Source: a virus
Taxonomy: Duplodnaviria; Caudoviricetes
Virus record (IMG/VR): IMGVR_UViG_3300011334_000313
Span: 1-31,951 of that record
Strand: one strand, 5' to 3'
Length of the DNA stretch: 31,951 nt
Shown here in pieces: positions 1,878 to 28,963 of the stretch (positions are counted from its first letter, which is position 1; the number at the start of each line of letters is the position of its first letter). The notes beneath the pieces were generated by a model, which saw nothing but the letters and a program-made list of their open reading frames with translations, was not told the origin of the DNA and ran no database searches. Position numbers and translations under genes: made by a program.

Positions 1878-2354
1878 TTAAGTAACCGTTATTGATAGGG
1901 TCTGACATATAGGATATATTGATTTAAGTCCTATCATTCTTATTTCAAAATAATATGTCCCTGATGAGAACGATGCAAGACCCATCATTGCTGGGGTTAC
2001 AATGACCGTATTTGACCCCGAATATGTTGTCCCTGTCGTTGTACCACTCGTTACAATATCCACGCATCTCCACGGCTTAAAATACGTTTGTGTAGCTGCT
2101 AACATATGTACTGATAGTAAATGTATTTGACCACTGTTTGAAATGAATGGTTCCGCACCATTTTTAGACCAGGTCCAGTTATGGGTAAATGTTATACTAC
2201 TACTGGTTGCTGTACCAGAAACAATAAAGTTTGTTACCGTACCTGTTACACTATTATTATTTATATTATGAACTATATCAACATCATATTCCGATATTTC
2301 AAAATTGGGATATATAAAGTTGGTTTCGTTATATTGTGGTATGTACTTACTCAT
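1878..2354 (-). CDS. Putative minor tail/virion protein (158 aa, beta-rich)
   Basis: Thr/Ser-rich ORF in the tail module with its own TATATTTA promoter-like site upstream. Confidence 0.55.
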   Translation of the reverse strand: MSKYIPQYNETNFIYPNFEISEYDVDIVHNINNNSVTGTVTNFIVSGTATSSSITFTHNWTWSKNGAEPFISNSGQIHLLSVHMLAATQTYFKPWRCVDIVTSGTTTGTTYSGSNTVIVTPAMMGLASFSSGTYYFEIRMIGLKSIYPICQTLSITVT

Positions 2355-2359
2355 ATTAT

Positions 2360-2392
2360 TAAATATACTTTTTTAGTTATTGTGGTCTCAAA
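2360..2392 (-). promoter_or_regulatory. Bacteroidota-type promoter TTTG-N21-TATATTTA, 5 nt upstream of ATG 2354
   Basis: + strand CAAA at 2389-2392 and TAAATATA at 2360-2367; resembles the -33 TTTG / -7 TAnnTTTG consensus. Confidence 0.55.
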
Positions 2393-3751
2393 TTATGTCC
2401 AATCATTAAATTGTAACCAATAGTCATAATTGGCACTTGTAAATGTGGTTGTCGGGAAAATTAAAGTTCTCGTACTTTCTGATGGACACACTTGTAATGT
2501 AAAATTATTACCATCTAATACGCTGGTAACTAAAGGTCCAGCAAATCCAATTCTAATCTGTGCGTTGGTTTGGTCAAACGTTGGATTATAGGTTCCACAC
2601 GCAGCAAACTTACAACATCTTCTTCTAACTCTTAATCCACTGTATGTACCTTCCGTTAATGTTATTGTACTACCTGTATGACTAATAACTTGTTGGTTAC
2701 TTGTTACAGATAAAACATTAGTAAACGTTGCACCACTATCTATTGAATATTCTAAATTCCACGATTTATTACAAACAGGTGTCGCACTAAATCTATCTAC
2801 ATTTAAATAAAATGTTAATGTAAACGGTCCTGGCGTAGGAGTTGGAGTTGGGGTTTGCGTTGGTGTGCTTGACGCAGTTGGGGTTGGTGACGTTGTTGGA
2901 CTTGGGGTAGGAGTTGGCGTACTTGACGCAGTCGGAGTTGGAGTAGGTGCAATATTTACTGACCTATCTCTTCTTCTTACTTCGTATGTTCCGTTTTGTA
3001 CTAATGTAATAGGAGTTGGACTATCTAATTCAAATACTTTACTTGAATTACAAGCTGGTGTACTAACTGGAAATGTTCCTGTACTTCCACCTTGTTCAAT
3101 ATCATCTTTATATACACCTAAAAATCCTGACTGCCAACGAACACAATTACCACCACCGACATAACTTAATGTAGTCCTTGTTCTAAATATTTGTGATGTT
3201 CCACCTGTAATAAATATTTGACCTATATTGTATGTAAATCCAGTGTCTGATGAATAGTTATAAGATGGTATATCAAATTGTCTACCATCTAATGTTACTG
3301 TTTGATTTATCGTTGCTACGGTATATAAACCATCGGGGTCTGTAATACCTGAATATGAATATACCAAATTGATAAAGAACGGTGACGTGTCTAAATAATA
3401 TTCAAAATTGTAACTATTAGCTAATGTTGTTACGGTAAATGTATAAGCTGATATACCAACAGTTGTTCCCAATTCAGTTACTTTAATACCGTTGTCACCA
3501 TTTTCATAATCAGTAGTATAGTTATATCTTTTAGCTATTATATTAAAATTACTACTTGCTTCCAATCTTACAACATCACCAATATTTAAACCTACTACGT
3601 ATAGTCCTTCTACTGTTGAGTATTCTTTTGCAGCTAAAACATTATTTACATAAACATCAATCACCGCAATATTTTCATCTTCCGATAATAGTAATGAACC
3701 TTTCGCAGTTGTATTAGTGTCTTGTTGTGATGGATATATTCTCGGTCCCAT
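2393..3751 (-). CDS. Virion/tail accessory protein with Pro-Thr linker between beta-rich domains (452 aa)
   Basis: PTPTPTASSTPTPTPSPTTSPTPTASSTPTQTPTPTPTP linker; located in the tail module. Confidence 0.6.
   Translation of the reverse strand: MGPRIYPSQQDTNTTAKGSLLLSEDENIAVIDVYVNNVLAAKEYSTVEGLYVVGLNIGDVVRLEASSNFNIIAKRYNYTTDYENGDNGIKVTELGTTVGISAYTFTVTTLANSYNFEYYLDTSPFFINLVYSYSGITDPDGLYTVATINQTVTLDGRQFDIPSYNYSSDTGFTYNIGQIFITGGTSQIFRTRTTLSYVGGGNCVRWQSGFLGVYKDDIEQGGSTGTFPVSTPACNSSKVFELDSPTPITLVQNGTYEVRRRDRSVNIAPTPTPTASSTPTPTPSPTTSPTPTASSTPTQTPTPTPTPGPFTLTFYLNVDRFSATPVCNKSWNLEYSIDSGATFTNVLSVTSNQQVISHTGSTITLTEGTYSGLRVRRRCCKFAACGTYNPTFDQTNAQIRIGFAGPLVTSVLDGNNFTLQVCPSESTRTLIFPTTTFTSANYDYWLQFNDWT
2830..2950 (-). 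repeat. Pro-Thr (mucin-like) coding repeat
   Basis: Repeated gttgg/gtagg units encoding (PT)n, with a repeated TPTASST unit. Confidence 0.85.
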
Positions 3752-3770
3752 ATTCTATTTTAATTAATTT

Positions 3771-6700
3771 TTAACATTGTTCTGTTGCTAATCCTGTTAT
3801 TTGTCCTGTGCTGCTGTTTATATTCCACACTGATAAGTTTATATATACAAAATCATATCCTGTTAATGGATTAGGGAATGTGTCTACATAAACATAACAT
3901 CCAGTACCGAACGTAAGACCATCACAATTTGAATATAACGTTCTGTTATTTAATCCTGCATCGTTACAAGCACCTGATGATGTACTACCATAACCACATC
4001 CACCGAAACTTGTAACAGCAATAGTTGGTGTAGGCGTTGGCGGTGGCGGCAATGTTGAAGTAGGAGTTGGCGGTGGCGGCAATGTGCTTGTTGGTGTTGG
4101 TACTACAGATGTTGCAGTTGGAGTAGGAGTTGCGGTTGAAGTAGGCGTTGGCGTTATAACAATATTTGTTGGACACGTTCCTGCACTACAACTAAATCCT
4201 GCTGCAATACTTATTGTCATTCCATTATAACCCTGTTCTTGTATTACACCACCTGTATAATCCATACATCTATATCTAATACCATTCGTCGTAAACACTT
4301 CACCAGTTGCTACACCATAACAATCGTTATAAAGAATACTTGCGGTTACTCCTTCCGGACCTGATGTTGTACCTGTTACATTCAATTCCACACATACACA
4401 AGGTATTGATGGAGTTGGTGTAATAGTTAAAGTAGGTGTAGGCGTTGGCGTTGGAGTACTTGTAGGAGTTGGTGTAGCAGTTGCAAGACAAGGATTAACA
4501 CCGTATGTTATTGATGACCCTGTTCTTATTACGTACGCACTATTTGTTGCGTTGAACCCTGCACAATTTGACCATAAGTTAGTTCCTGTAAAAGTTCCTG
4601 CGATGTTTATCCAAAACGAAGCTAAACTATAATTTAAACCTAATTCATTAGCATATATATAATTTAACATCGTGTCACAACTACTATCGTAACAACCACC
4701 GCTATTATATTCTGCTTCAGTAATCTCCTGCATTGTATATGGGATATACTGTATTTGGAAAGTACTTATGTTGAATATTCTAAACGTAGATGTAAATCCT
4801 GTTGTTGTCCCTGTCAATGAACCTACTTGCTGGTCATAATATGTAGACCAAATAAAGTTTGTGTCCAATAGATTAGGATTGGTAAAGTCTGTCTTTAACT
4901 TAAAACAATAACCAGGTTGGTCGCAATAAGTGTATTTAAAATATCTTGTTGGATAGGTCTGCGGATTTAAGTTTAACTGTATTAACTCTACCTTCGTCAA
5001 TTCTCTATTGGTTAAGTTAAACTCACTAATCTTGTTTATTGTAAAATATTGTTCTCTAATTTTAATTACATCATTCCATTGGAAGTTCTGTATATCAGAA
5101 TATTTTAAATCAAAATAACCGCTAACCATTCTTGTGTTAGGGTCATATATATTATTTATTCTTGTTTTATAAAACGTATTGTAAACATCGTTTTCTGTAT
5201 AAGTATTATAGGTCTGTACACCAATGTCTACTGGTAGTTCTGAATTGAATAATATACTTAAACTATCATTATTAATTTTATTACTATCACTTAAACCTAA
5301 TGGCATCGTATGTGAAACCACCGGTATTCTTTCTTCACCAGTTGTAGTTACACCTGTAAAATTGGATGGTTGTACTTTAACTGTAAAGGTATTGTAGTTT
5401 GAACCTGTTATTGAATAAACCTCATTTACGTCGTCAATAAAAGGATTTGCTGTACCTACCCAATAAAACAATTTAGGCTTCGTTTTTACCCCCTTATAAG
5501 ACCATCTAACCTGATTGTCCACCTTATCTATATCACTCGTTGCTGCGTAGTTTATACCTAATGGTAGACCTATATTGTCATCCCATTTTCTAATTAATTG
5601 AGGTGAAAATATTGTGTCTACTTTCTTTTCTTGTGATTTAAAATCAGTTGGGTTATAAATTAAATTTCTACCGTATATACGATTTACCCTATTCTTAAAC
5701 TCTCTATTACCCTCATCACCGTCTTCTAAATCTGTAAGCAATAAACTACTCTCAATAAAGTTTTGTGCAGGTTCTACTGTAAATCCTTTATCCCAACTCA
5801 ATTTAGGTGTCCAGTCAAATATCTGTCCTGTACCGATATAATAATCGTACGGTTCTACAATAATTTGATTTGTGTTTTCAGGGTCAGGTATAAATACTAA
5901 ATTGAATTTCTTCGCTATTGAACTTAATAAATCAATCTGTTTAATATTTTGGTCTACAACTAAATCAAACGAAACATAATCTCCGTTTTGATATTGTGCA
6001 CTATCACCAACATTTTTTGGAAAATAACTTACAGATTTAAATCTATCTGCCGGTACATCGGGACTTGTTAATGTGTCAACAGTACAATTGTTTGCTGTAT
6101 AACCGCTTGTTCCAGCACGTATAACTTCATTTTGTGTAGTGAATGTATTTGAACAAGTAATAGTAAAATTAATATCTTCGGTACAATAACAAGGTATACC
6201 AGTACCCAATTTACACACAACTATTTGATATGTAGTTGGACCTAAATATCCAGTTCTCAATTCAACACCATCTAATGGTAACTGTTGAATATTATTTAAT
6301 TTCCACCCAAACTTCGTTCCCTCATATGAAAAATATCCATATAGATATAATGACTTAATCCAGGGTGTGTTCATAAAGTCAGACTTAATACTATAACCAT
6401 AAGTCTTAAAGATTAAATTAATTAAACTCCACACATTTAAACCAGGTTTTAATTGGTTGTCCCTTAAAGCGTATAGTGGTGAATTAATTCTGTATTCTTC
6501 TACACCAGCAGTGGTTGCAGCTGTATATGTTGGAAAACTACCTATCGGTGATGTTGATGTATATAATCTTGTTTGTCCTGATGTAATACCACTAAAATTA
6601 ATTGTGTTACCACTATATTCATAACCGTTATGAACTATTGGATAAAAATATGTGTACGGGTATTCGCTGTCTTTATAAAAATTAGATTGACCAAATAGAT

Positions 6701-7217
6701 TTGTAACACCACTTGTTGTAAATTGATGATTGAACGTATATTCTGCATCATCAAAATCTAAATCTTGTAATAGGTTATTACCTATTTGACCGAATAAATT
6801 GCCAACAGTAGAATACAATGTTACATCATACTCCACCTTACTATTTATTACACTAATTTTATTTAATCTCATATAACCCTTGAAGTAGGATTGGTCATTT
6901 AACAACACATCGCAGTTAACCCTTTTGGTAGGGTCAAAATATAATGTTTGTGTGTCAACGTTATAAAAGGTCTCAAAAAATCTATTGTTCTTTTTAGAAC
7001 CTGGTAAAGATAAACCAATTGATAAGTCAGAATTACGTTTAGATATATCCTCTATTTCAGCAATAGACTTATTTATCTTAATTGGAATATCAGAATATAA
7101 ATCTAAATTTAAATATTTATATTGAGGTATTTCAACAAATGGTGGAGTAACACCACTCGTTATTGTAAAATCAACTATATTAGTTTGTACTCTTAATACT
7201 GTTTGTTGTTGAGACAT
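3771..7217 (-). CDS. Large tail (tip/baseplate hub-like) protein with C-terminal PT linkers and Cys-rich modules (1148 aa)
   Basis: N-terminal LDLY..IPIKINKSIAEIEDISKR..S....LPGSK.NN motif and KQIDLLSSIAKKFNL, DWT.K motifs typical of Bacteroidota siphophage tail proteins. Confidence 0.7.
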   Translation of the reverse strand: MSQQQTVLRVQTNIVDFTITSGVTPPFVEIPQYKYLNLDLYSDIPIKINKSIAEIEDISKRNSDLSIGLSLPGSKKNNRFFETFYNVDTQTLYFDPTKRVNCDVLLNDQSYFKGYMRLNKISVINSKVEYDVTLYSTVGNLFGQIGNNLLQDLDFDDAEYTFNHQFTTSGVTNLFGQSNFYKDSEYPYTYFYPIVHNGYEYSGNTINFSGITSGQTRLYTSTSPIGSFPTYTAATTAGVEEYRINSPLYALRDNQLKPGLNVWSLINLIFKTYGYSIKSDFMNTPWIKSLYLYGYFSYEGTKFGWKLNNIQQLPLDGVELRTGYLGPTTYQIVVCKLGTGIPCYCTEDINFTITCSNTFTTQNEVIRAGTSGYTANNCTVDTLTSPDVPADRFKSVSYFPKNVGDSAQYQNGDYVSFDLVVDQNIKQIDLLSSIAKKFNLVFIPDPENTNQIIVEPYDYYIGTGQIFDWTPKLSWDKGFTVEPAQNFIESSLLLTDLEDGDEGNREFKNRVNRIYGRNLIYNPTDFKSQEKKVDTIFSPQLIRKWDDNIGLPLGINYAATSDIDKVDNQVRWSYKGVKTKPKLFYWVGTANPFIDDVNEVYSITGSNYNTFTVKVQPSNFTGVTTTGEERIPVVSHTMPLGLSDSNKINNDSLSILFNSELPVDIGVQTYNTYTENDVYNTFYKTRINNIYDPNTRMVSGYFDLKYSDIQNFQWNDVIKIREQYFTINKISEFNLTNRELTKVELIQLNLNPQTYPTRYFKYTYCDQPGYCFKLKTDFTNPNLLDTNFIWSTYYDQQVGSLTGTTTGFTSTFRIFNISTFQIQYIPYTMQEITEAEYNSGGCYDSSCDTMLNYIYANELGLNYSLASFWINIAGTFTGTNLWSNCAGFNATNSAYVIRTGSSITYGVNPCLATATPTPTSTPTPTPTPTLTITPTPSIPCVCVELNVTGTTSGPEGVTASILYNDCYGVATGEVFTTNGIRYRCMDYTGGVIQEQGYNGMTISIAAGFSCSAGTCPTNIVITPTPTSTATPTPTATSVVPTPTSTLPPPPTPTSTLPPPPTPTPTIAVTSFGGCGYGSTSSGACNDAGLNNRTLYSNCDGLTFGTGCYVYVDTFPNPLTGYDFVYINLSVWNINSSTGQITGLATEQC
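4020..4160 (-). repeat. Pro-Thr repeat with a 30-nt tandem duplication (TLPPPPTPT x2)
   Basis: gttggcggtggcggcaatgt at 4036-4055 and 4066-4085. Confidence 0.85.
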
Positions 7218-9378: not shown

Positions 9379-9485
9379 TATTCGGTTGGTATGTTATAAA
9401 TATCTTCGTTATTTGGTGTAGGTGACGGAGTTGGTGTTGGTGGTATAAATGTCGGTGTTGGTGTATGTTGTGTTATTTCTTCCAT
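9378..9485 (-). CDS. 35-aa Pro/Thr-rich microprotein (not in ORF track)
   Basis: MEEITQHTPTPTFIPPTPTPSPTPNNEDIYNIPTE*. It fills the gap exactly: start 1 nt after the fibre stop, and TAATG overlap with the next gene. Confidence 0.7.
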   Translation of the reverse strand: MEEITQHTPTPTFIPPTPTPSPTPNNEDIYNIPTE

Positions 9486-9486
9486 A

Positions 9487-12400
9487 TTATCTTACTTGTG
9501 TTACTGTTGTTATTATTGATGTTACTGCTGGTATATTTCCTGTCGGTGCATTGTAAAGTAATACCGCATCACCATTTGCTGACTGCCATACCAATTCTAT
9601 ATAATCACCTGCGTTTGCAGTAACAACATAGTTCCACGCTGCCATTAACTCATCATTATTTGAAAGTGTTACTCTACCAGCAGTGTCAGGAATATTTGTA
9701 CCGTTCTTCTTTAACCAGAACCATACGTCATCCGCACCAGTGTCAGCTAATACCTGTGCTGAAAATTGTATATTATAAACACCTTTATTTGCTAATGTTA
9801 TTTGAGTACCTGAAACTACTGAAACACCTTGTGATATATCTGTTACATTATAGTTAATTGATTGAGAAACATTCGCACTACCTGATTGTGTTTGTGTTGA
9901 GTAGAATGAACCAACATTAAATTGTAGATTACCACCCACTCTCAATGAACCACTTACCACTAAATTGTTTCTAATATCAGTTGCTGCGTTAATCTGTAAT
10001 GTTTGTAATGATGGTGTACCATTAAACTTACCCCAAAATAACGAACCACTTCTTGACGCATCAACATTACCTCTATCTTTTGCATCTAAATAGAAATTTT
10101 CATTTCCTAATTCATATCTACCAGCAGACGGTCCAATTGCAAGATTACCAAAACCCGTAACATTATTTTCTAATGATAAGTTACCAATACCAATATTTCC
10201 TGTACCAGTTGTATTTTGATTTAAACTTCTAACACCAATAGCCATATTATCGGAATTGCTATTATTAACTAATGTTGCGTTACCGATTGCAGTATTATTA
10301 GACCCCGAAATATTTAATTGTAGTGCAACACTTCCTATCGCTGTATTTTGATTACCATCAACATTTAATTGTAGTGCACCATTACCGATTGCTAAATTAT
10401 TAAAACCTACTGTATTATTAGTTAATGTAGTTGGACCTATTCCCACGTTACCACTAGCAACGTTATTTTGTAAAGCGTTTGTACCAATAGCTACAAGGTT
10501 ACTACCTGATAAATTATTAGCAAGTGCTGATGAACCAATTGCAATTACATTTGTTCCCGCACTTGTTTGTTTTGTTAATGTATTAAAACCAATACCTAAG
10601 TTTTGTCCTACATCAGTTGGTCCTCTCCAGAAGTTCATATTGTTAATTGAACCTGATGTTAATATGCCACCTGTTACAAATAATACAGTATTATTTGAAT
10701 TGTTATTTGTTACCGTTAACGAACCTGATATTGATTGTGCTGCACCTGCAAATGAACCTGTTGTTATTAATCCGTTTCTATCAGTTTGTGGAGTTAAACC
10801 ATTTATTTGTAATGAACCTGATATATTAACTGAACCTGTAAAGTTTGAGTTATTATTACTATCAATACGTAAAGCGTTTCTTCTACCATTATCAGCAACA
10901 CCTGAACCAACAACAAATATTGTCTCTTGTGAACTTTCTTGTAAAGAACCAGTTGCGTTAAATCTACCAACTATAACTGTACCGCCAACAATACTACTAA
11001 GGTGTGACGCTGAAACAATTAATCCTTGTCCTATTAATCCTGTTGAAACTAAATGTCCGGCTGTAAATGAACTTGTACCAGGTATATAATTTGAGTTAAC
11101 AATATTATTATTACCTATAATTGTGTTATTATTAAATGTTCTTCTTACTGCACTATTAGAACCTGTTACTACAATAGTATGTCCAAAACCACCAATAACA
11201 TTACTATTTACGTTAATATTATTAACAGCATTTGCAACTGATGATGAATAGTTATTTGTAACTGTTATACCACCACCAATATTATTTGAGAAGTTAATAG
11301 ATGAACTATTGTGATTTAATGTTGTTGCACCATTAATTAAGTTACTTTGATTAATTGGACTTACCCCTAATGTTGTTGTATTAGCTATTGAACTAAATGT
11401 ATTATTAAATAAATTGCCAACCATACTTATACTACCGCTTCTATGTTGTATTGCGGTGGTTGTATAAATAAGGTTATTTGATATATTCGGTGTACCTACT
11501 GAGTTTGTTGTAAATTCTAAATTTAACGCACCATTAAGTTGGTTATTATTTATTATAGGTGACATAAGAGAACCTGTTACCAAACCTGGTATTGTTGTAA
11601 CAATATTATTATTACCATTTATATAACCATATATTGTTCCTGTTTGTGCTGGTGTGCTATTTCTTGTTGGATTTAGTAAAATGTTATTAGAACCTGTAAT
11701 TTGTATTGAACCTGTTGCTTGTGATGATTGTATTGTACTTGCAAAAACTGGCATAAATAACAAGTTAGATGATGATATTGGCAATGAACTTGTTACATTC
11801 AATTTGAATGAACTTGACACCATTACTTCGCTTGATAGTTTTATAAAGCCGTCATTAATAACATTACCAACTAATGAACCAGATATAACTGTCTCATCTA
11901 ATACTAAACTACCTGTTATATTTTGTGTGCTTGTTATTGAACCTGTTGTTATAAGACCTGTATAATCTACTAGACCGCTAGTTCCTGATGAACCACTTGT
12001 TCCACTAGAACCTGATGTACCCGACGTGCCACTAGAACCTGATGTTCCTGATGAACCTGCGGTACCTGCTTCACCAAACGCAATACATTGTACATACATT
12101 TCTAATAATGGATTTGCTATTGGACTAACATTATCTAAAATAATTCTAAAACCATTTGCGGTTTTATTTTGAATTTGTGGTCTTCCATCCCAACTTTCCC
12201 AACTTGTACTTCCTGTTAAATTGCCAGTTGTTCCTGTATTAGTACAAAATGTAGTTCCTGTATAATTAAATGTAATTTGTGTGTCAATTGAATAACCTGT
12301 TGAAGAAAATGGTACGTCAAATACTAAATCATAATAAGAATAATTACAAAAACCTGTTACTATAACTTCAGTAAAATCATTTATGTATAGGTTATAGTTT

Positions 12401-13110
12401 TTAGCTATTAATCCTAATCCATTAACACCACTCGTTCCTGATGTTCCAGCAGTACCGCTTGAACCTGACGTGCCACTTGAACCTGATGTACCACTTGAAC
12501 CACTCGTACCTGATGTTCCACTTGTACCTGAACTTCCACTAACTCCTGACGTTCCTGATGTACCAGAACTACCGTTAAATCCACTCGTACCACTTGTACC
12601 TGAACTTCCACTGCTACCACTTGTTCCAGCTGTTCCTGATGAACCTGATGTGCCACTACTTCCGTTTAAACCCGAAGTACCTGACGAACCATTAGACCCT
12701 GAAGAACCCGATGTTCCACTAGAACCTGATGAACCGTTAAATCCTGATGTACCTGACGTACCCGAAGACCCAGCAGTTCCACTTGTTCCGCTACTACCAT
12801 TTGCACCGCTTGTTCCTGACGAACCGTTGCTTCCTGATGTACCTGAACTACCGTTGCTTCCGGATGTACCTGATGTTCCACTTGAACCTGAGGTTCCTGA
12901 ACTACCTGATGTAGAACCGGTAAACGGTAAATTATTTACAGTAAATGACCCTGATATATTCACTTGTGTAAGTGACATTTGTAATGGACTATCTGAACCA
13001 TCACCAGCTTCTATTGTTTGTAATGTACTTGTAAGACCCGTAGCACTGTTGGTCATCTTCAAGAGACCCTGAAAACTACTACTTACATATAAATTATTTA
13101 GTGCACCCAT
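9487..13110 (-). CDS. Tail fibre/adhesin: (GSS/GTS)n repeats, Asn-rich beta-solenoid, YadA-head-like repeats, C-terminal C1q/TNF-like domain (1207 aa)
   Basis: Gly every third residue; 14-aa N.AIG..AL..N..G repeats at about 10120-10600; C-terminal GVYNIQFSAQ...WLKKNG...AAWNYVV...GDYIELVW. Confidence 0.75.
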   Translation of the reverse strand: MGALNNLYVSSSFQGLLKMTNSATGLTSTLQTIEAGDGSDSPLQMSLTQVNISGSFTVNNLPFTGSTSGSSGTSGSSGTSGTSGSNGSSGTSGSNGSSGTSGANGSSGTSGTAGSSGTSGTSGFNGSSGSSGTSGSSGSNGSSGTSGLNGSSGTSGSSGTAGTSGSSGSSGTSGTSGFNGSSGTSGTSGVSGSSGTSGTSGTSGSSGTSGSSGTSGSSGTAGTSGTSGVNGLGLIAKNYNLYINDFTEVIVTGFCNYSYYDLVFDVPFSSTGYSIDTQITFNYTGTTFCTNTGTTGNLTGSTSWESWDGRPQIQNKTANGFRIILDNVSPIANPLLEMYVQCIAFGEAGTAGSSGTSGSSGTSGTSGSSGTSGSSGTSGLVDYTGLITTGSITSTQNITGSLVLDETVISGSLVGNVINDGFIKLSSEVMVSSSFKLNVTSSLPISSSNLLFMPVFASTIQSSQATGSIQITGSNNILLNPTRNSTPAQTGTIYGYINGNNNIVTTIPGLVTGSLMSPIINNNQLNGALNLEFTTNSVGTPNISNNLIYTTTAIQHRSGSISMVGNLFNNTFSSIANTTTLGVSPINQSNLINGATTLNHNSSSINFSNNIGGGITVTNNYSSSVANAVNNINVNSNVIGGFGHTIVVTGSNSAVRRTFNNNTIIGNNNIVNSNYIPGTSSFTAGHLVSTGLIGQGLIVSASHLSSIVGGTVIVGRFNATGSLQESSQETIFVVGSGVADNGRRNALRIDSNNNSNFTGSVNISGSLQINGLTPQTDRNGLITTGSFAGAAQSISGSLTVTNNNSNNTVLFVTGGILTSGSINNMNFWRGPTDVGQNLGIGFNTLTKQTSAGTNVIAIGSSALANNLSGSNLVAIGTNALQNNVASGNVGIGPTTLTNNTVGFNNLAIGNGALQLNVDGNQNTAIGSVALQLNISGSNNTAIGNATLVNNSNSDNMAIGVRSLNQNTTGTGNIGIGNLSLENNVTGFGNLAIGPSAGRYELGNENFYLDAKDRGNVDASRSGSLFWGKFNGTPSLQTLQINAATDIRNNLVVSGSLRVGGNLQFNVGSFYSTQTQSGSANVSQSINYNVTDISQGVSVVSGTQITLANKGVYNIQFSAQVLADTGADDVWFWLKKNGTNIPDTAGRVTLSNNDELMAAWNYVVTANAGDYIELVWQSANGDAVLLYNAPTGNIPAVTSIITTVTQVR
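11975..12915 (-). repeat. Two G-X-Y (GSS/GTS/GSN) coding repeat blocks (about 12420-12915 and 11975-12070)
   Basis: SSGTSG repeats with a 9-nt period and synonymously diversified codons. Confidence 0.9.
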
Positions 13111-14185: not shown

Positions 14186-14490
14186 TTAAATTATATTATT
14201 GGCTTTTTTATACCTCTTAACCTCTTCCTTGTCTTTCTCTATAAGATAGGACAACATATTTAAGGCTTCGATAATTCCTTTCTTAGTGATGCTATTGTGT
14301 CTTGTAATATCATCATTTGCAATTCTGTTAAGAACAAGGTACCATCCGAATTTCTCTTCCATAGATTTGTCCATATTCTCTTTCTCCATTTCCATACGAA
14401 CTTTATCTGCAGCCAGCTTATTCTCATCCACATCTTCAAAGATATTGGGGTATTTTGCGAATAGGTCCTTGCGAAATGAATAAAAAAAAA
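14186..14490 (-). CDS. -1 frame extension of the tail assembly chaperone (gpGT-like C-terminal part)
   Basis: The -1 frame is open from the T9 run: YSFRKDLFAKYPNIFEDVDENKL...EEKFGWYLVLNRIANDDITRH...LSYLIEK. The ORF-track start at 14431 is only an internal GTG. Confidence 0.8.
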
Positions 14491-15013: not shown

Positions 15014-16378
15014 TTATCTTATATTGTTTATTGATGTATATGTACTACCACCGACAACACCTATCGCATATCTTCCAGTGGCTTTTTGGTTCTTTATATG
15101 GAAATACATTCCCATCATAACCGCATCAGATAAATCGGGTGACTTACCTAATATCCTTTTCATATCATCTTTTGATTGCACTGCAACCTTATTATCTTTA
15201 TCTACGTCTTTCAATTTAACTGCTAATAGTTCTTGTGTTAGTTCATCAACCAAACTACTATCCAGTATATTAATACTTATTTTTCCTTCTTTAAATAGTT
15301 CAGCCAATTTAGTATAACATTGTGACTTTAAATTGCTAAAGTTCTGGTCGTGTAGTGCTTTACTATTGTTTACGAAGTTAACACCTCTAACCTGGTCCGC
15401 AACACCACCACCAACACCGTCACTATCGAGGACAACTTGTTGTGGGTGTACCTTCCATTTAGCTATTAGGTCCTTAATTTCGGCACTTAATTCTACGGTG
15501 GATAGTTTTCTATACACAAGTATTTCCACGATAACTAGACCGTTCCAAACCACCGCTACGGACCTGTCATCACCGAACCTACTTACGTCCACTGAAATAT
15601 ATCTCTTATCATTTGGATTTGGTGTGTGCTTGAACACCGAGTTGGTTATACTATCTAAATCAAACAACGCATTAATGTCATCGGTATATCGCCAGTTACC
15701 CATTAATAATCTTTCTCGTTGTTGTTGCGGTAATTCTTTTAACATCTCAATATAAGATGCTGGTAAGTGTGGATTATCCATCGGTAATGATGGTATAAAA
15801 ACTTTATTACTATCTAATGTTCCTTCTTCATACGGTAAATAAAATCTTTTAAATAACCAGTTCTGTCCAGGGTTTGATGTAAGTAATATTTTAGGTATTA
15901 ATTTATACTCATTTAATTTGTAACGAATACGTGACTTTAATATTGAAAACGTTGTCTCACTTATCTGTACAGCTTCATCCACATAAACTGCCGTTAATTC
16001 CAACCCACCCAAACTATCCTTGTTAATATCCGAAGGTTTGTCTTCTAAATCTTTTAATATAATCTCGCTACCGTTATAAAACGTAAGTACATTTGATTGT
16101 GCGTTATATGTGTAGTGTGTTTCTGATGTAAGACCCATAAACTTAGGTCCTAATACTTCTAATAAGGTTTTAAATGTTGTTTGTTTAAGTGTAGCTAATA
16201 CTGTTCTACCTATCAGTGTTCTAATACCAGGGTATTTTAAACACAACGTTACAATCCAAATACAGCCTAGTGTACTTTTAGAACCACCTGCACTACCACC
16301 AAAACATATCTCGTTGGTTACATCATCAGTCAAATATCTCCACGCAATTGATTGTTTAGGTAATAGATTAATCTCCAT
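15014..16378 (-). CDS. terL: Terminase large subunit
   Basis: Walker A GGSAGGSKS, Walker B VYVDEA, coupling motif TSNP, RNaseH-like nuclease motifs ISVDVSRFGDD / DSDGVG / SPDLSDA. Confidence 0.95.
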   Translation of the reverse strand: MEINLLPKQSIAWRYLTDDVTNEICFGGSAGGSKSTLGCIWIVTLCLKYPGIRTLIGRTVLATLKQTTFKTLLEVLGPKFMGLTSETHYTYNAQSNVLTFYNGSEIILKDLEDKPSDINKDSLGGLELTAVYVDEAVQISETTFSILKSRIRYKLNEYKLIPKILLTSNPGQNWLFKRFYLPYEEGTLDSNKVFIPSLPMDNPHLPASYIEMLKELPQQQRERLLMGNWRYTDDINALFDLDSITNSVFKHTPNPNDKRYISVDVSRFGDDRSVAVVWNGLVIVEILVYRKLSTVELSAEIKDLIAKWKVHPQQVVLDSDGVGGGVADQVRGVNFVNNSKALHDQNFSNLKSQCYTKLAELFKEGKISINILDSSLVDELTQELLAVKLKDVDKDNKVAVQSKDDMKRILGKSPDLSDAVMMGMYFHIKNQKATGRYAIGVVGGSTYTSINNIR

Positions 16379-17087
16379 ATAAAAAGTTGTACGCAGATAG
16401 GTCTTCTATATCTTCGTTATGACCTACTTCATTATCCCATCTATCTCGGTCGTGTTGTATTTCACAATCCACTCTACCTCTTTCACATCTTAACATCCAG
16501 TCTTCTCTTGTCTTATTGTGGTAGTGATTTAACACCGCAATATCTGATGGTCCGTTATGGTTGAATGGTCCATTAAATCTTTTACCATTTGTGTCCATTG
16601 CCGGACCGTGTGTATTGTGTGGTAACATCATCCTTTCTCCTGACCTTGCGTTTACTATAACCTTGATGTGTTCATTTGTATTGCTGTTTCTTTTTGGAAA
16701 CATTTTAAGTAATGAATTGCAATATCTATTCTTCAGGTCCATATTACCAAACATAAACCAGTTCAGTCCTATTACATTTGTCTTATCCTTATAGTCATTG
16801 ATAAAGTCTTTTATATTATCGTGTTTCTTTAATACCAGAAACTCATCGCAGTCAAAAAAAGCAATCCAGTCATATTCTGTATTTTGTGCTAATACGTTAT
16901 TATATAATGGTACTTGTATAGACCTACCATCACATATTTCTTTTTGTAGGTATGGTTTCTCTATATCTGTTCTCCAGTCGTTCTGGTACATTATAATTTT
17001 ATCAAACCCTAATTTGTGGTTATACTCTAACCATTCTTCTAGGTAGTAGTCTTCCCATTTTGCTACGCATACTAACGCTACTTTCAT
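16368..17087 (-). CDS. Glycosyltransferase, GT-A fold (GT92/GT2-like, 239 aa)
   Basis: AKWEDYYLEEWLEYN..LGFDKI..Y.ND and WIAFFDCDEF (DxD) motifs, plus LNHY. Confidence 0.85.
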   Translation of the reverse strand: MKVALVCVAKWEDYYLEEWLEYNHKLGFDKIIMYQNDWRTDIEKPYLQKEICDGRSIQVPLYNNVLAQNTEYDWIAFFDCDEFLVLKKHDNIKDFINDYKDKTNVIGLNWFMFGNMDLKNRYCNSLLKMFPKRNSNTNEHIKVIVNARSGERMMLPHNTHGPAMDTNGKRFNGPFNHNGPSDIAVLNHYHNKTREDWMLRCERGRVDCEIQHDRDRWDNEVGHNEDIEDLSAYNFLYGD

Positions 17088-17266: not shown

Positions 17267-17866
17267 TTAATTGTGTACGTAAAGTATTTTATCTATATAT
17301 TTTATTTTACCTTCAGGGAACCTTGCGAGATATTCTTCAACGAACCAATAGTCCGCTTGTTCCAGTTCTGTTTTAAGTTCTAATTGTTTACCCTTATCTG
17401 TCCTAACCATAAAGTTACCAATATCAATCCTACCATATTCTGTTGCACATTTAATAGGAACATAATCATCATTCACCCAGTTATGTACCATATTGCAATA
17501 AGCGAAATGAACGTCATCATTATCCTTTACCGCAGATAGAAAGTTCTCTACGAATGTTGGTACGTAGTAGTTGTCCTCTCCGGTCATAATAACCCATTCT
17601 TCCGTTGCTGCTTTAAGACCTATATTACGTGGAGTATGACCCCAGTCATTATATCTTATATCTGTTACCGAGAACTTAATCTTATCCTTATGTTCGTCAA
17701 AAAAAGCTATAATATCTAAATACCTTTCCTTAATATCTTCGGGTGGACAATCTGCTACCACGTGTATTTTCCAGTTAGGATTTGTTTGTGCAACGATTGA
17801 ACTGATTACTGTTATTAGTAAATCTACTCTTTTATGTGTTGGTATTACAAACTCTATCTTATCCAT
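17267..17866 (-). CDS. Glycosyltransferase family 2 (likely start at ATG 17866)
   Basis: FVIPTHKR...AQTNPNW.IHVVAD...GHTPRNIGL.AA..EWVIMTGEDN; TAATG coupling to the upstream methyltransferase stop. Confidence 0.85.
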   Translation of the reverse strand: MDKIEFVIPTHKRVDLLITVISSIVAQTNPNWKIHVVADCPPEDIKERYLDIIAFFDEHKDKIKFSVTDIRYNDWGHTPRNIGLKAATEEWVIMTGEDNYYVPTFVENFLSAVKDNDDVHFAYCNMVHNWVNDDYVPIKCATEYGRIDIGNFMVRTDKGKQLELKTELEQADYWFVEEYLARFPEGKIKYIDKILYVHN

Positions 17867-18423
17867 TATATATATTTTATCCAACTATTATCTTTAAACA
17901 CTTTATCAGGTGCACCGAACATTTGATTAACCGCTTCATATACTCCAACCAAATGTGGTATTTGATTTGTGTAATCGTGACCACCAATTACTCCACCTTC
18001 TTTTACTAATGGTAAGTAGTTGATAATATCTGTTTTAACACCGTTATATGTATGTAGTCCATCGATATAGATAAAATCGTATTTTAAGCCACCTAATTTC
18101 TCCACTGCGTCATCGGAGGTAGAAACTATCGTCTCAATGTTTTGATGGTCACCAGTGCGTTCTAAATACGTTTCGTATACATTTTTAAACTCAAACATAT
18201 ATGACGTTGGGTCAGCAGGGTCATAGTCTGCAAGAAATGGGTCTATCGCTATTACTTTCTTAAATGACCTAGCAAATAGTACCGTACTTTCTCCTACGAA
18301 TGAACCTATCTCTATCATCGTCTTCTCAGAGTTGTCTCCTAATTCTTTTATCAGGTCCAGTAAACCTTCAGTGCTGGTTGCATCTCGCATCCAGGTTTGT
18401 TCTTTATTTGTTGTGTATTTCAT
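17866..18423 (-). CDS. Class I SAM-dependent methyltransferase (Methyltransf_24-like)
   Basis: IEIGSFVGES, IAIDPF and DFIYIDGLHTY..VK.DI...LPLVKEGGVIGGHDY motifs; no DPPY/NPPY or PC motif of DNA MTases. Confidence 0.9.
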   Translation of the reverse strand: MKYTTNKEQTWMRDATSTEGLLDLIKELGDNSEKTMIEIGSFVGESTVLFARSFKKVIAIDPFLADYDPADPTSYMFEFKNVYETYLERTGDHQNIETIVSTSDDAVEKLGGLKYDFIYIDGLHTYNGVKTDIINYLPLVKEGGVIGGHDYTNQIPHLVGVYEAVNQMFGAPDKVFKDNSWIKYI

Positions 18424-18914
18424 TTTCTTCTATTATTAATTTGTTCTTTTGGTGTGGACCATTTGCAGTTAGATGGTTCATAATTACCGTTTACATCTAT
18501 TCTGTCTATTGTTGTCCCTAATGGTCGTTCACCCATATCTTCATAAAAATTAATAAAACTATTAATCCATCTATCACATATTGTTATTCCACGACCGCCA
18601 TAATTAAAATAATCTTTTGAATTAGGATTTAAACATCGTTGTTTCATCATATGCCAACTTTTGTAAGTTCTAGTTTTATACATATTATGTTTTGTAGACA
18701 TTTGTGTTAATACATTATTTCTAATACATCCACAAGATTTTGTACTTCCATATTTTATATTTTTTAATTGAGTTATGATTATTTTATGACAATCACATTT
18801 TAATTTAAAAACTCTTTCTTTTTGACCAGATAGTTGTTTATGTACTGGTTCTTCATTTAATACTGTTAATAAACCAAATCTATCACCTTGTTTTATGTCT
18901 AGTCTTTTTCCCAT
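18420..18914 (-). CDS. Free-standing HNH-family homing endonuclease-like protein
   Basis: RFGLLTV...CDC...TKSCGC, then YKSW..MKQRC.NP...YGGRGI.IC.RW...DMGERP...IDRID.NGNYEP.NC.W. Confidence 0.85.
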   Translation of the reverse strand: MGKRLDIKQGDRFGLLTVLNEEPVHKQLSGQKERVFKLKCDCHKIIITQLKNIKYGSTKSCGCIRNNVLTQMSTKHNMYKTRTYKSWHMMKQRCLNPNSKDYFNYGGRGITICDRWINSFINFYEDMGERPLGTTIDRIDVNGNYEPSNCKWSTPKEQINNRRK

Positions 18915-19784: not shown

Positions 19785-19898
19785 TTATTCTTCCTCCGTT
19801 TTAATTTCCACCGCTGGTGGTGTTGGTTCTGGTACCATCGTTACAACAGGTATTGTTACAACTGGTATTGATTGATTATTCTTCTTGCAGTTACACAT
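19785..19898 (-). CDS. 37-aa microprotein MCNCKK... (not in ORF track)
   Basis: MCNCKKNNQSIPVVTIPVVTMVPEPTPPAVEIKTEEE*; TAATG overlap with the upstream stop and 1 nt from the next ATG. Confidence 0.7.
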   Translation of the reverse strand: MCNCKKNNQSIPVVTIPVVTMVPEPTPPAVEIKTEEE

Positions 19899-24902: not shown

Positions 24903-25520
24903 TTAATAGCAGTCGTTACAAGGAGGATTTTCGTGTTCCAATTCACTATACACTGTAAATTGTTTACCAATGTTTCTCATTGAGTAACCCTTACGTGTGG
25001 TGTTTTTTAGGGATATACCACTCATATATTTTTGCGAACGGTCAGGAATCATTCCATCAATTGTAGATTGAGTATTGTAATCTGGGAACTTATTTTGTCC
25101 ACGACCAATCAATAGATAATCCTGTAATCTGGTCATATAAAAATCTGCACGTGACTTTTGTATATTCCTTAAGTACTGCATCGTAGCAATGTCCACTGAC
25201 TGTGCGTTCTCCATTGTACCAGACACAATACCGTTGTTCATCGTTCTATACATAATTTGTGGTATAGCGTTGAAGTACGCGGTCTGGATAAGGTATGGTT
25301 GGATATAATCATTTACTAGCGTTGTTTCCTCCGCGTTAAATGTATTACCTGTTGAACTTACTTGTGATAATAAATGGTTATAGAACTTGGTACCCAATAT
25401 TGTTTGTAAGTCAATGTCTTGTGCAATCTGAACTTCCGCTTTTAAAACGTCCATATCAACATTCTTATTGATGTTGGTAAAGTTCTTTAATTTTGTTTCT
25501 GATATTAATAATACACCCAT
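24903..25520 (-). CDS. Head-tail adaptor/head completion protein
   Basis: LLISE..LK..T.IN.NVD......V.IAQDI.LQ.ILGT..Y motif; immediately follows the portal. Confidence 0.7.
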   Translation of the reverse strand: MGVLLISETKLKNFTNINKNVDMDVLKAEVQIAQDIDLQTILGTKFYNHLLSQVSSTGNTFNAEETTLVNDYIQPYLIQTAYFNAIPQIMYRTMNNGIVSGTMENAQSVDIATMQYLRNIQKSRADFYMTRLQDYLLIGRGQNKFPDYNTQSTIDGMIPDRSQKYMSGISLKNTTRKGYSMRNIGKQFTVYSELEHENPPCNDCY

Positions 25521-25522: not shown

Positions 25523-26881
25523 TTAATTAATGTTTAATTCTTCTTCTTCTACTAACCACGCACCACATTGTTCTTCGGTTAATCCATAACCCGCCATTAA
25601 CATTTGTGTTGCTTGTGCTTTTGTTATTTTTTCTTTATTGTACTCTCTTACAATTCTTAATAGACCTTGATATTCTCTACCAGATAGTTTCTTAATATTA
25701 TCGTTTACAGTCATCTCTTGTTGGTCAGGAACTTGCACCGGTGTTACAGGTACATCATCCACAACTGGATTTTCTTTAATATCACCAGTTAAGAATAGAC
25801 TTAATGGTTTAATTTCAAATGTGGTAGGCTTCTCAAACTTGATTGACACCAACTTATTGAACACTGGTAACATACAGTTTTGGAATGGTTGAATAACCAT
25901 CTTTCTAAAATATTCAGAATGTTCAACTATTTCATTTGACGCACCCAACTTACCAGCTGTTGCAATACCAAATAACTCCGCACTACTTACTCGGTGTGCA
26001 GATAAGATTGAACGTGTAATGTCGTCCGCTAATCCAGAATAATAACTGTCATTGTCGTTACGTGGTATTTGAATAATCTCAGGTGCAGTGTCCTTGCTTT
26101 CGTTGAAGGATATAATTGCTTGACCTGCATTATCTGTACCTGCGTATTGTTCTTCTAACGCACGTGTTAAAATACGTTGTTCTTCTTCCCCAGGTATTCC
26201 ACCATTCATATTAATGAAAAGTGATGGCACCATTCCTGAACGTAAATTGTTCATATGGAAGTTCTTCGTCTCAATATCAATCTCAATTGCACGTTGTCCT
26301 GCTGACCAGTCTGGTACAGGATAGTAACTCATTGAAGGAATGTATGTCTTGTAATAATAGATTTGTGTGTCACCCTTCTCGTCCATATTAAACGCAGGAT
26401 ATTCTTCCGGTGGATATTTTCTTGTGTCTTTCCAATGTGCAGAATAATAGTACTTATCAATCTTATCATCTTCGTTTAACTTACCACTACGCACTCTACT
26501 AAAATCTAAATGATAAATCTCAGCAATACCCTTACCATCTCTTGTCTTGATAATCTGTAAAGCAAAACCCCCAAATAACATAAAGTCCAACGCACACTTT
26601 CTCATTACGTCAGCAACATTTTCTGATGGGTTGATAAGATTAACCGAAGCCATCGGGTTGTTTAATGACACAATACCATCACCCATAATCTGATTTACCT
26701 TACTAGTAATTACAGCTTTATGTATAGCACAATTGTCATATAACTCAATGAAGTATTGAGGTAGTAAGTTTGTTTCTCCGTAATAAACCCACGGATAACG
26801 TTGTAGAACTTCCGAAAAAATAGGTACTGACGCACGGTCAAAACTTGTTCTACTTAATTTGTATTTTTGTATTTCACTCAT
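25523..26881 (-). CDS. Portal protein
   Basis: WVYYGE.N..PQY.IELY...AIH.A, YYP.PDW, FH.NNLRSGMVPS, Y.G.DNAG and I.SAHRV.S..LFGI motifs; 452 aa. Confidence 0.85.
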   Translation of the reverse strand: MSEIQKYKLSRTSFDRASVPIFSEVLQRYPWVYYGETNLLPQYFIELYDNCAIHKAVITSKVNQIMGDGIVSLNNPMASVNLINPSENVADVMRKCALDFMLFGGFALQIIKTRDGKGIAEIYHLDFSRVRSGKLNEDDKIDKYYYSAHWKDTRKYPPEEYPAFNMDEKGDTQIYYYKTYIPSMSYYPVPDWSAGQRAIEIDIETKNFHMNNLRSGMVPSLFINMNGGIPGEEEQRILTRALEEQYAGTDNAGQAIISFNESKDTAPEIIQIPRNDNDSYYSGLADDITRSILSAHRVSSAELFGIATAGKLGASNEIVEHSEYFRKMVIQPFQNCMLPVFNKLVSIKFEKPTTFEIKPLSLFLTGDIKENPVVDDVPVTPVQVPDQQEMTVNDNIKKLSGREYQGLLRIVREYNKEKITKAQATQMLMAGYGLTEEQCGAWLVEEEELNIN

Positions 26882-26883: not shown

Positions 26884-27255
26884 TTAATCTTGTATATAAA
26901 TATAATTCTCGTTAGTTTCGTTTGGTGATATATATTCTGTAAATCCTGCACCAGCTTCAGTTCCTCTTAATATAGTAATACCAGTGTAGACCAATTCATT
27001 ATCATCTTGACCATAAATGTTTAATTGATATTCACCCAAATAATTTAGGTCATCAATATCCAATGGTAGTTTAATTTCACAATAACGAATATTTTGGAAA
27101 TACTCCGCAGGATTACTAATATCTATTGAATAGGTTTTTACTTCCTTACTCATAATATGTGTAAACTCCAATGTATAACCAGTGAACGTAGCACGACTAT
27201 TATTGTTGATATTCAACACTAACGAGTTTTCCTCTCCTTTATTTAAATAAATCAT
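26884..27255 (-). CDS. Small virion protein (possible head closure, 123 aa)
   Basis: Sits between tail tube and portal; G.Y...IY.Q motif. Confidence 0.55.
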   Translation of the reverse strand: MIYLNKGEENSLVLNINNNSRATFTGYTLEFTHIMSKEVKTYSIDISNPAEYFQNIRYCEIKLPLDIDDLNYLGEYQLNIYGQDDNELVYTGITILRGTEAGAGFTEYISPNETNENYIYIQD

Positions 27256-27281: not shown

Positions 27282-27310
27282 CATTTTTCCATTTTGAATT
27301 GGTATAGAAT

Positions 27311-27334: not shown

Positions 27335-27383
27335 CCCTTAGAATGATAGAAATATAGAAATTCAGTCCACGACAGACTTACTA

Positions 27384-27926
27384 CTACGCTACTCCAAATC
27401 CACCTGCAGCAAATACTGTTGGTAAAGTACCATTAACAACGTTAGCTGGTGCTTTTTCTTGACCAGTAAAGATTAATTCAAATCCATTTCTGTCACCAAA
27501 CGCAGTACCAGTAGCAGCAGAACCACCACTTAAATACATACCGTTTACTTGACCTAAATAGTAAGCAACATCGTTTTGGTCAACAGCTACGATTTGTATT
27601 TTATCGTTTTGACCTAATACTAATAATTGGTTTCTCTTATCTTGGTCGTACTTAAATAATACAGCAGTTAACACTTGTTCCCAGAATATAGTACCATTTT
27701 CGAAGTTTTTAGTAGTATTTTGTGCTAAAGAAGATGTGTTTCTTTTTAACTCAAAATTGTACCAAACTCCGCTACCTGCGATTGCAGTAATACCGCTTGT
27801 AACAACGGTAAGACCTGACACCGATGGTGCTGTTGCACCACTTGCACCTAACACCCAAATAGATTTAATACCACCAATTCCATCAGAACAACCTAAGTCA
27901 ACTCCTGAAGATATATAACAACTCAT
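27384..27926 (-). CDS. Major tail tube protein
   Basis: MSC.ISSG..LGC.D.IGGIK, ENGTIFWEQ.L and G.A.GDRNG..L.FTGQE..PA motifs; follows the capsid gene. Confidence 0.75.
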   Translation of the reverse strand: MSCYISSGVDLGCSDGIGGIKSIWVLGASGATAPSVSGLTVVTSGITAIAGSGVWYNFELKRNTSSLAQNTTKNFENGTIFWEQVLTAVLFKYDQDKRNQLLVLGQNDKIQIVAVDQNDVAYYLGQVNGMYLSGGSAATGTAFGDRNGFELIFTGQEKAPANVVNGTLPTVFAAGGFGVA

Positions 27927-27958
27927 ATGTGTATAATTTATTTTTTTTTGTTTATGTT

Positions 27959-27979
27959 AAAGGGGACTTTCACCCCTTT
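27959..27979 (-). terminator. Hairpin after the capsid gene (weak terminator or mRNA stabiliser)
   Basis: AAAGGGG-TGAAAGT-CCCCTTT; poor U tract in the minus direction. Confidence 0.55.
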
Positions 27980-28000
27980 TGTTTTTTAATTTTTTTTAGA

Positions 28001-28963
28001 TTACGCTAAATTGTTTGTTGCGAAATATGCAGTTGAACCAAACGTTGCAATTGTTGCACCGTAGTTAAAGTTTGCACGTAAACGTAACTCATCAAAATCC
28101 TTACTGTACCACATTACTAATTTCTGACTATCGGATAAAAGGTCAAATCCTAAAATTAGATATTCACGTGGTCCGATAACAACTTGGTTAGAACCATTCA
28201 AACCTAATGTAGGAACGACTTTAACATTTGTGTTAGGATGTGTAGCTTCCATCATTGAAGTAATATCAGCAGAACCGATATAGTTCGCGAAGAAGTTAGC
28301 ACGAGTTAACGCTTGAATATAAAGACGGAAGTTAGCGTAAGACATAAACACAATTAAATCTTCACGAGACATTGCGTTGTCATCTAATACGTTAATCAAT
28401 TTATCTACTTCAGTGATAGGGTTACCACTAACACCATATGCAGCTGAACTTGAGAAAGTTACACCGCTTGAATTAGCAACACCAGTTGTACCAGTAGAGA
28501 TTAATGACTTGAAACCATTGAAACAAGAAGTTCCAGTTGTTGCTTGCCATAATTGCTTCTCAATGTATTGTTGAATTTCTTTAACTTTCAAATCAGCAAT
28601 TTGTTGTTCGAATGGAACAGTCTCTTGTGTTTGACCTGGTGCCATTAACATTGACTGATAAGTGTCATACAAATCCTTGTAACATAACGCTTCATTGTAC
28701 TTTGTAGGACAAGTTGTGATGTTAGTTTGAGTGTATGTAGTTGTACCTGATGGTTCCCATCCACAATCACCGTCTTGGAAATAAGCTGTTGAGTTCAATA
28801 AGTTCAACGCTTGTGTACCTTTAATACCTAAACGTACATTTGCATATCTAGCAGTTGTACCGCCGATAAGTGCTTTTGATAATAATTCACCACCAACTTG
28901 GTCAACATATCCACCAATTGATGCTACGTTGTATGCGAATTGTTCTCTTGATAAAATTTTCAT
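28001..28963 (-). CDS. Major capsid protein
   Basis: 320 aa downstream of protease and scaffold; GIK...ALN.L, CGW.PSG.T, E..LWQ and F.G...LI motifs. Confidence 0.85.
   Translation of the reverse strand: MKILSREQFAYNVASIGGYVDQVGGELLSKALIGGTTARYANVRLGIKGTQALNLLNSTAYFQDGDCGWEPSGTTTYTQTNITTCPTKYNEALCYKDLYDTYQSMLMAPGQTQETVPFEQQIADLKVKEIQQYIEKQLWQATTGTSCFNGFKSLISTGTTGVANSSGVTFSSSAAYGVSGNPITEVDKLINVLDDNAMSREDLIVFMSYANFRLYIQALTRANFFANYIGSADITSMMEATHPNTNVKVVPTLGLNGSNQVVIGPREYLILGFDLLSDSQKLVMWYSKDFDELRLRANFNYGATIATFGSTAYFATNNLA

Follow-up and report, generated by a model that had tools for sequence, protein, structure and literature searches.

Do the short peptides that recur in the virion proteins of an uncultivated phage mark a site at which an enzyme acts and, if so, whose enzyme is it? 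The question is raised by a 31,951-base stretch of phage DNA (IMG/VR record IMGVR_UViG_3300011334_000313; 33.6% GC, 93% complete by CheckV), the whole of which we call the window. A first-pass annotation had estimated about 40 [S/T]-G-x-T tetrapeptides (x, any residue), concentrated in outer virion proteins, and proposed that they are a sequon for the phage's own glycosyltransferases (GTs). We found that the pattern is real, selected and sequon-like, whereas the link to the phage's own GTs is not supported.

Motif excess in outer head and tail proteins

Our recount gave 43 sites, against 12.9 expected from 2,000 composition shuffles per protein, in 12 of the 37 window proteins. It reproduced each per-protein count of the first-pass annotation; the remaining 25 of the 37 proteins are motif-free. 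Eight outer head and tail proteins held 35 sites versus 5.1 by shuffling. Sites exceeded expectation in the 7221 protein (9 versus 0.54, P = 0.0005; proteins without a name are designated by the first coordinate of their gene, Table 1), the 3771 protein (10 versus 1.98, P = 0.0005), the tail tube (3 versus 0.28) and 26884 protein (2 versus 0.07; P = 0.002), the 2393 protein (5 versus 1.33, P = 0.0075), the capsid (3 versus 0.43, P = 0.01) and the 1878 protein (2 versus 0.37, P = 0.05). The head–tail adaptor and the prohead protease have one site each. Across the 228 glycines of the eight proteins, a Ser or Thr before Gly was coupled to a Thr two residues after it (odds ratio 8.9, P = 2 × 10−10), beyond what separate excesses of Ser/Thr and of Thr would give. 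By contrast with the motif, neither the N-x-S/T sequon (85 versus 87) nor the D-(S/T)-x sequon of Bacteroidota (8 versus 14.5 expected in the outer proteins) was enriched, in keeping with the earlier remark that [S/T]-G-x-T is distinct from the latter.

For other proteins the earlier picture held only in part. The five fibre sites do cluster in the non-repeat N-terminal part (5 versus 0.48), but the fibre as a whole is not enriched (5 versus 5.9; distal part, 0 versus 2.2). Likewise, the neck and zinc/helix–turn–helix (Zn/HTH) proteins each carry the one site reported for them, but their homologues are at chance level (2 versus 2.0 in 37 relatives and 2 versus 1.3 in 24, respectively). These three proteins look as they would if the motif arose by chance, as a side effect of a composition rich in Ser, Thr and Gly, or from a repeat in the DNA. 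For the eight outer proteins such an origin is refuted by the shuffles and the coupling, and by the pattern scan, codon use and conservation described below, and we regard it as extremely unlikely.

Motif shape and turnover in relatives

In a four-gene tree with 28 rows, the motif-rich genomes group as a single clade (support 1.0). Counting relatives with two self-identical loci left out, and bearing in mind that homologues are not independent, we found 240 sites versus 31.3 in the capsid (75 open reading frames, ORFs), 233 versus 30.7 in the tube (72 ORFs), 55 versus 6.5 in the adaptor (58 ORFs) and 53 versus 6.5 in the 26884 protein (71 ORFs). Close homologues of the portal (0 versus 7.3; 71 ORFs), scaffold (2 versus 3.3; 63 ORFs) and tape measure (3 versus 4.0; 15 ORFs) showed no excess. 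Among 150 capsid representatives of 28 to 81% identity, there were 202 sites versus 43.8, with 38 capsids motif-free; part of the capsid excess reflects an E-loop G-x-T that is kept even without the leading Ser/Thr.

We masked the Pro/Thr linkers of 141 unique outer proteins, drawn from 36 genome stretches, and ran an unbiased scan with six three-residue templates; T-G-x-T (315 versus 48.3) and S-G-x-T (269 versus 35.8) held the first two ranks among all patterns. In these proteins, Thr was 4.6-fold enriched at +3 after [S/T]-G and Ser only 0.9-fold; before G-x-T, Ser and Thr alone were enriched, with Asp and Asn at or below expectation; and Ala in place of Gly gave a weak 1.7-fold excess. The Ser residues of the motif are encoded from both codon boxes (179 TCN and 93 AGY) with synonymous use matching the background, which indicates a protein-level rather than a DNA-level motif.

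Positions 0, +1 and +3 were more conserved than the same residues elsewhere, and x was free, so that the motif has the shape of a sequon: fixed positions, a free spacer and enrichment in one protein class. Across 17 homologues of the 7221 protein, sites fall at 14 alignment positions; 39 tubes use 11 positions, and 25 homologues of the 3771 protein use 101, the last number being inflated by poorly aligned variable ends. The capsid motif persists across small indels, the adaptor site is retained in 24 of 27 dereplicated relatives, and Ser/Thr swaps at position 0 are frequent in the tube and the 3771 protein. [S/T]-G-x-T is thus a selected, protein-level motif of outer head and tail proteins in this clade, and it recurs, as the first-pass annotation proposed, in non-homologous proteins.

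The first-pass annotation had expected the sites in surface loops. In an AlphaFold2 model of the capsid (mean confidence, pLDDT, 85 with an alignment of 144 diverse sequences; 42 with close homologues alone), which Foldseek matched to HK97-type capsids (best E = 4 × 10−11), the sites are predicted in or at the ends of loops, namely at the tip of the E-loop and in the loop region that follows the spine helix. From HK97 topology, we take these loops to face outward. The tube sites fall in a length-variable hairpin region. Sequence searches of the Protein Data Bank with the capsid, tube and GT92-type protein returned nothing useful.

Fold alone does not explain the excess

Homologues outside the clade served as controls for fold. 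We counted 17 sites versus 10.1 in 32 homologous outer proteins from 11 prophage or metagenome-assembled genome (MAG) loci and 57 versus 33.9 in 22 outer proteins of a sister clade, whereas the cultured Nonlabens phage P12024S has no motif in its capsid, tube or adaptor and one in each of five other proteins. The background excess is therefore about 1.4- to 1.7-fold in host proteins and other clades, compared with about sevenfold in the motif-rich clade, and since homologues in prophages and P12024S reach only about 1.7-fold, fold alone does not explain the excess.

These controls bear on the possibility that the motif remains unmodified and serves as a hydroxyl-rich turn on exposed β-rich surfaces, for folding, stability or non-covalent binding of water, metal, mineral, polysaccharide or a partner protein. 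The background excess suits such a role, as do the reuse of a conserved turn glycine in the capsid E-loop x-G-x-T, the tube hairpin and the adaptor helix cap, and the absence, among the phage genes scanned, of an enzyme that tracks the motif. However, P12024S and the prophages use the same folds without the motif; a generic turn would accept Ser at +3 and Asp or Asn at position 0, neither of which is enriched; and the motif occurs in β-rich, helical and linker contexts alike. We consider an unmodified turn unlikely, although a substantial possibility. Even without a sugar, a selected motif at about sevenfold excess across unrelated virion proteins calls for an explanation.

Motif excess is independent of phage GT genes

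Two GT-A enzymes and a methyltransferase are encoded between TerS and TerL in the morphogenesis operon. Among the 11 near-complete genomes in which this interval is visible (the window, G002, G003, G010, G012, G013, G015, G020, G438, G439 and G441), at least one GT is present in 8 (a GT92-type gene in 5, a GT2 gene in 7) and none is detectable in 3; no single GT is common even to the GT-bearing genomes. Of 27 distinct TerS–TerL intervals, 15 contain at least one GT and 12 contain none. The five core outer proteins carry 10.4 motifs per 1,000 residues where a GT is encoded (11 genomes) and 9.6 where none is (5 genomes; P = 0.35), a comparison that takes in the partial or joined records G001, G440, G433, G016 and G007 and leaves out G017, which lacks some of the genes, as well as G435 and G437, in which the interval cannot be seen.

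Eight profiles, searched in all six frames (E 0.05), found no GT in G015, G438, G439 or G007 and recovered five positive controls; the profiles were built from the GT and methyltransferase types of this phage family, and an unrecognised GT fold could escape them. Pfam and PHROGs scans of unassigned ORFs in these four genomes found no GT either. (A genome search with PF13692 was discarded in favour of the family-specific profiles, as it missed the positive control G448.) G015 and G439 have terminal repeats and G438 is 100% complete by CheckV, and in these three GT-less genomes the motif is 6.2 to 8.3 times as frequent as expected. GT status is scattered over the tree; the GT-less G438/G439 branch is deep, and its own proteins are motif-rich (6 versus 1.0 and 4 versus 0.8 sites). 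Conversely, the motif is weak in the sister clade, which has a conserved GT-B gene. Hence the motif excess is independent of phage GT genes, and no phage gene among those scanned tracks it. The first-pass annotation had named equal enrichment in relatives without GTs as one of the results that would speak against its proposal, and this is what we observed.

A phage GT92 or GT2 might still initiate, if GT-less relatives kept a vestigial motif or were complemented by co-infecting kin. The GTs adjoin TerL in the structural operon, most near-complete genomes have one, and the mycobacteriophage Che8 is reported to use its own GT (PMC13445384, citing Freeman 2023). On the other hand, neither GT is universal, density does not depend on them, and the lineage-specific motif-rich proteins of the G438/G439 branch are not explained by vestige. 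We hold initiation by a phage GT to be decidedly improbable.

Several accessory genes were seen along the way. A weak GT2 match in G015 (E = 0.003) proved to be a HAD-like insert in the protease. A weakly FkbM-like methyltransferase adjoins the sigma-like gene in several relatives (L100:9228-9773 and homologues), including the GT-less G015, G017 and G007; G015 keeps it without any GT. The sister-clade GT-B-like gene (L285–L304, G447–G457) encodes 330 to 357 residues and is often accompanied by GT2, hexapeptide acyltransferase or methyltransferase genes.

The host is probably a member of the Bacteroidota

The gene set (HK97 capsid, portal, TerL, tape measure) fits an HK97-fold long-tailed phage related to Inhavirus; judged by the gene order of complete relatives, the sole part missing from the window is the end of the tape measure gene. 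River metagenomes contain near-identical DNA, and the habitat is river or freshwater. Among cultured phages, a portal search led to P12024S/L and a capsid search gave no match; the nearest cultured relative is P12024S. Prophage relatives were located in Chitinophaga, Pedobacter and gut MAGs. A Shine–Dalgarno-like word precedes 3 of 31 window start codons, and A stands at −3 in 21 of 31, an initiation pattern that fits Bacteroidota. Together, the prophage relatives, the cultured relative and the start-codon pattern point to a Bacteroidota host. The Bacteroidota promoter word TANNTTTG was not enriched (36 versus 48.7 expected) and therefore gives no host evidence. No clade member turned up on any host-flanked contig, and a search of 401 Bacteroidota and 401 Chitinophagales genomes found only distant prophages.

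A host enzyme as candidate reader

One of these prophages is rich in the motif. G773, a genome from the order of Chitinophaga, contains an apparently complete integrated prophage (L404:9180 to L405:19672) with the same gene set plus a serine recombinase, holin and endolysin; the flanking ORFs are presumably two pieces of a YifB/comM-type gene. The prophage groups with Pedobacter prophages outside the motif-rich clade. Five of its outer proteins have 26 sites versus 4.7 (shuffle maximum 14), and its portal, tape measure, TerL and protease have none. Family-specific profiles gave no convincing GT in the prophage; we counted two weak matches (E = 0.01 and 0.035) as noise, because one at 0.022 also came up in a control genome.

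We tentatively favour, without considering it probable, the reading that [S/T]-G-x-T is a sequon for a cytoplasmic O-glycosyltransferase of the host, the phage enzymes having an optional, extending role. Virion assembly takes place in the cytoplasm, and the first sugar would be attached by the host enzyme either ahead of assembly or in its course; the variable phage GT92, GT2 and methyltransferases would do no more than lengthen or cap it, giving a variable coat. The Ser/Thr at position 0 is the predicted acceptor, because Ser and Thr swap freely there, as acceptors often do, and the strict Thr at +3 would be a recognition determinant. Pro/Thr linkers, which are typical of O-glycosylated proteins, occur in both GT-bearing and GT-less genomes.

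G773 has 22 GT2 matches and no collagen-like protein. A collagen-like protein of G491 with a signal-like N terminus has 97 motif matches, and T-G-x-T-rich surface proteins therefore exist in the order Chitinophagales. (G491 encodes about a dozen collagen-like proteins, at L398:2455-5787 and other loci, rich in Gly-Ala-Thr repeats; one has a C1q domain.) Host collagens differ from the phage pattern: in the collagen-like repeats of 36 phage fibres, Thr occurs 626 times at the second position and at 22 of about 1,300 third positions, where it would create the motif.

Several results weigh against a sugar-adding host enzyme. In the G773 proteome, sampled over 44 stretches that add up to 880 kb of 4.5 Mb, a footprint is visible for the known D-(S/T)-x sequon (323 versus 197) but not for [S/T]-G-x-T, which is 1.4- to 1.5-fold in host proteins: proteins with signal-like N termini have 66 sites versus 53, no specific excess given control patterns of 69 to 75, and those that lack such an N terminus show no depletion (126 versus 72). 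A general host system is disfavoured by this result; a narrow one is not. As the host reader, GT60 (PF11397) found no support: of 301 Bacteroidota genomes, just 10 gave matches, and these were weak and partial. A repeated fibre unit accounts for 13 of the 26 sites of the G773 prophage, and control patterns run high there as well (6 to 14), so that the prophage amounts to moderate evidence. Avoidance in the portal is only suggestive: a further portal count gave 1 site versus 22, but control patterns fall as well (4 versus 19 and 6 versus 22), and we rejected the depletion as proof. For several sites, the underlying glycine turn is conserved in motif-free relatives too. Finally, the glycan on the virion and the enzyme that reads the motif, like that enzyme's host origin and the phylum of the host, are things that we infer.

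If a host enzyme reads the motif, its mark could also be something other than a sugar, such as phosphorylation, methylation or acylation of Ser/Thr. The independence from phage GTs would fit, and so would methyltransferases that persist without GTs, the HAD-like phosphatase domains inserted in several proteases and the published case of a tail protein whose modification depends on a host methyltransferase (PMC13445384). The GT genes that recur in the morphogenesis operon and the linkers shared by GT-bearing and GT-less genomes point instead to a sugar, and we judge a non-sugar mark improbable.

Alternatively, a large phage co-infecting the same host might provide both the reader and the means of lysis. 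Neither the window nor G003, G012, G013, G015, G020, G438, G439 and G441 contains an endolysin or integrase recognised by Pfam or PHROGs (in these eight near-complete relatives, the endolysin scan covered unassigned ORFs), whereas the sister clade and P12024S have an endolysin. However, the G773 prophage combines the motif with an endolysin of its own, and a divergent lysin may simply escape recognition; a helper phage is very unlikely.

Relation to known modification systems

Virion O-glycosylation has been published for mycobacteriophages (PMC11256854, PMC12619734). In the Che8 type, a phage GT acts and the glycans are reported at the C termini of capsid and tube (PMC11256854, PMC12619734, PMC13445384). 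The window resembles it as a siphophage with GT genes (two) and with capsid and tail tube as likely targets; it differs in having an internal four-residue motif, in eight or more proteins, that is independent of phage GTs and known from sequence alone. MepM-dependent methylation of the mycobacteriophage tail protein Gp34 (PMC13445384) likewise needs a host enzyme to modify a virion protein, but it concerns methylation at a single ELS motif in a single protein and is not virion-wide.

In Clostridioides difficile, the GT2 enzyme SgtA uses a nucleotide sugar to modify Thr or Ser in the Gly-Pro-Thr repeats of BclA3 (PMC7157674), which spell T-G-x-T. SgtA is described as having 358 residues and two domains, whereas the window GT2 has 205 residues and one Pfam domain, and the phage collagen-like repeats avoid the third-position Thr, opposite to BclA3 and the Bacteroidota host collagens. 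P12024S (Inhavirus, NC_018271) shares homologous capsid, tube, portal, adaptor, neck, TerL, chaperone and 3771-like proteins with the window but is marine, has no GT and, besides its endolysin, has a motif-free capsid, tube and adaptor.

The general O-glycosylation system of Bacteroidota, in the probable host phylum, is also sequence-defined, but its D-(S/T)-(A/I/L/V/M/T) motif, with Asp before the acceptor, is read in the periplasm on non-cytoplasmic substrates (PMC12871550). The same 2025 review describes bacterial O-glycosylation as generally motif-free, with D-(S/T)-x as the sole known exception. The available parts of PMC13738210 hold nothing on phage sequons, and a literature search, covering titles and abstract openings, found no report of a phage virion sequon or of [S/T]-G-x-T; the supplements of Freeman 2023 may list acceptor sites. 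That the motif in this abundant 30–34-kb freshwater clade is a sequon for a host-primed sugar coat, diversified by phage enzymes, and a second sequence-defined bacterial O-glycosylation motif, is a possibility that we advance with considerable reserve. If true, this cytoplasmic, phage-used sequon could be a portable tag for glycoengineering, and phages without GTs could be glycan-coated, so that GT presence would undercount virion glycosylation.

Features of the window

Table 1 Motif-bearing proteins, accessory enzymes and motif-free controls
Product	Position	Strand	Remarks
Tape measure protein	3..1859	−	Cut by window end; motif-free control
Tail-associated protein, 158 aa	1878..2354	−	2 motifs
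Tail-associated protein, 452 aa, Pro/Thr linker	2393..3751	−	5 motifs
Probable hub/tail-tip protein, 1148 aa, Pro/Thr linkers	3771..7217	−	10 motifs; homologue of P12024S gp45
Probable tail-tip protein, 537 aa	7221..8834	−	9 motifs, strongest excess; role from gene order; no family match
Fibre, Gly-Thr-Ser/Gly-Ser-Ser collagen-like repeats	9487..13110	−	5 motifs, all N-terminal, outside repeats
GT92/GT2-like glycosyltransferase	16368..17087	−	Accessory
GT2 (GT-A) glycosyltransferase	17267..17884	−	Accessory
Methyltransf_24/FkbM-like methyltransferase	17866..18423	−	Accessory
Probable head–tail adaptor, DUF6712	24903..25520	−	1 motif, aa 57
Portal	25523..26881	−	Motif-free internal control
Conserved 123-aa morphogenesis protein	26884..27255	−	Motifs at aa 25 and 91
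Probable tail tube protein	27384..27926	−	Motifs at aa 29, 37 and 44 (nt 27786-27842); phrog_19091 (function unknown); label from gene order
Major capsid protein, HK97 fold	28001..28963	−	3 motifs
Capsid motif, aa 166	28457-28468	−	
Capsid motif, aa 157	28484-28495	−	
Capsid motif, aa 72	28739-28750	−	
Prohead protease, variable inserted domains	30189..31931	−	1 motif, aa 306, in linker

The window protease (minus strand, as in Table 1) is split by variable modules: a GxxNCRH domain, a Zn finger and a helical domain of about 100 residues, the last also occurring as a standalone protein beside the GT-B gene in the sister clade. In the protease of six relatives (L101, L102, L106, L185, L196 and L203), a HAD-like DxDxT phosphatase domain is inserted. 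Two HNH endonuclease genes (18420-18914, minus strand; 29779-30153, plus strand) are inserted in the packaging and head modules.

The tail chaperone region (14186-14431 and 14260-15012, minus strand) contains a T-TTT-TTT run at which a −1 shift would enter an overlapping open frame, making it a candidate programmed frameshift; G012, G015 and G017 also have a similar short ORF downstream. Two unlisted ORFs on the minus strand encode a Pro/Thr-rich peptide of about 35 residues after the fibre gene (9381-9487) and a Cys-x-Cys peptide of about 37 residues after the sigma-like gene (19786-19898). Among the relatives, the 57-kb record G007 (L201-L203) holds two related but differing phage genomes head to tail and is probably an assembly chimera.

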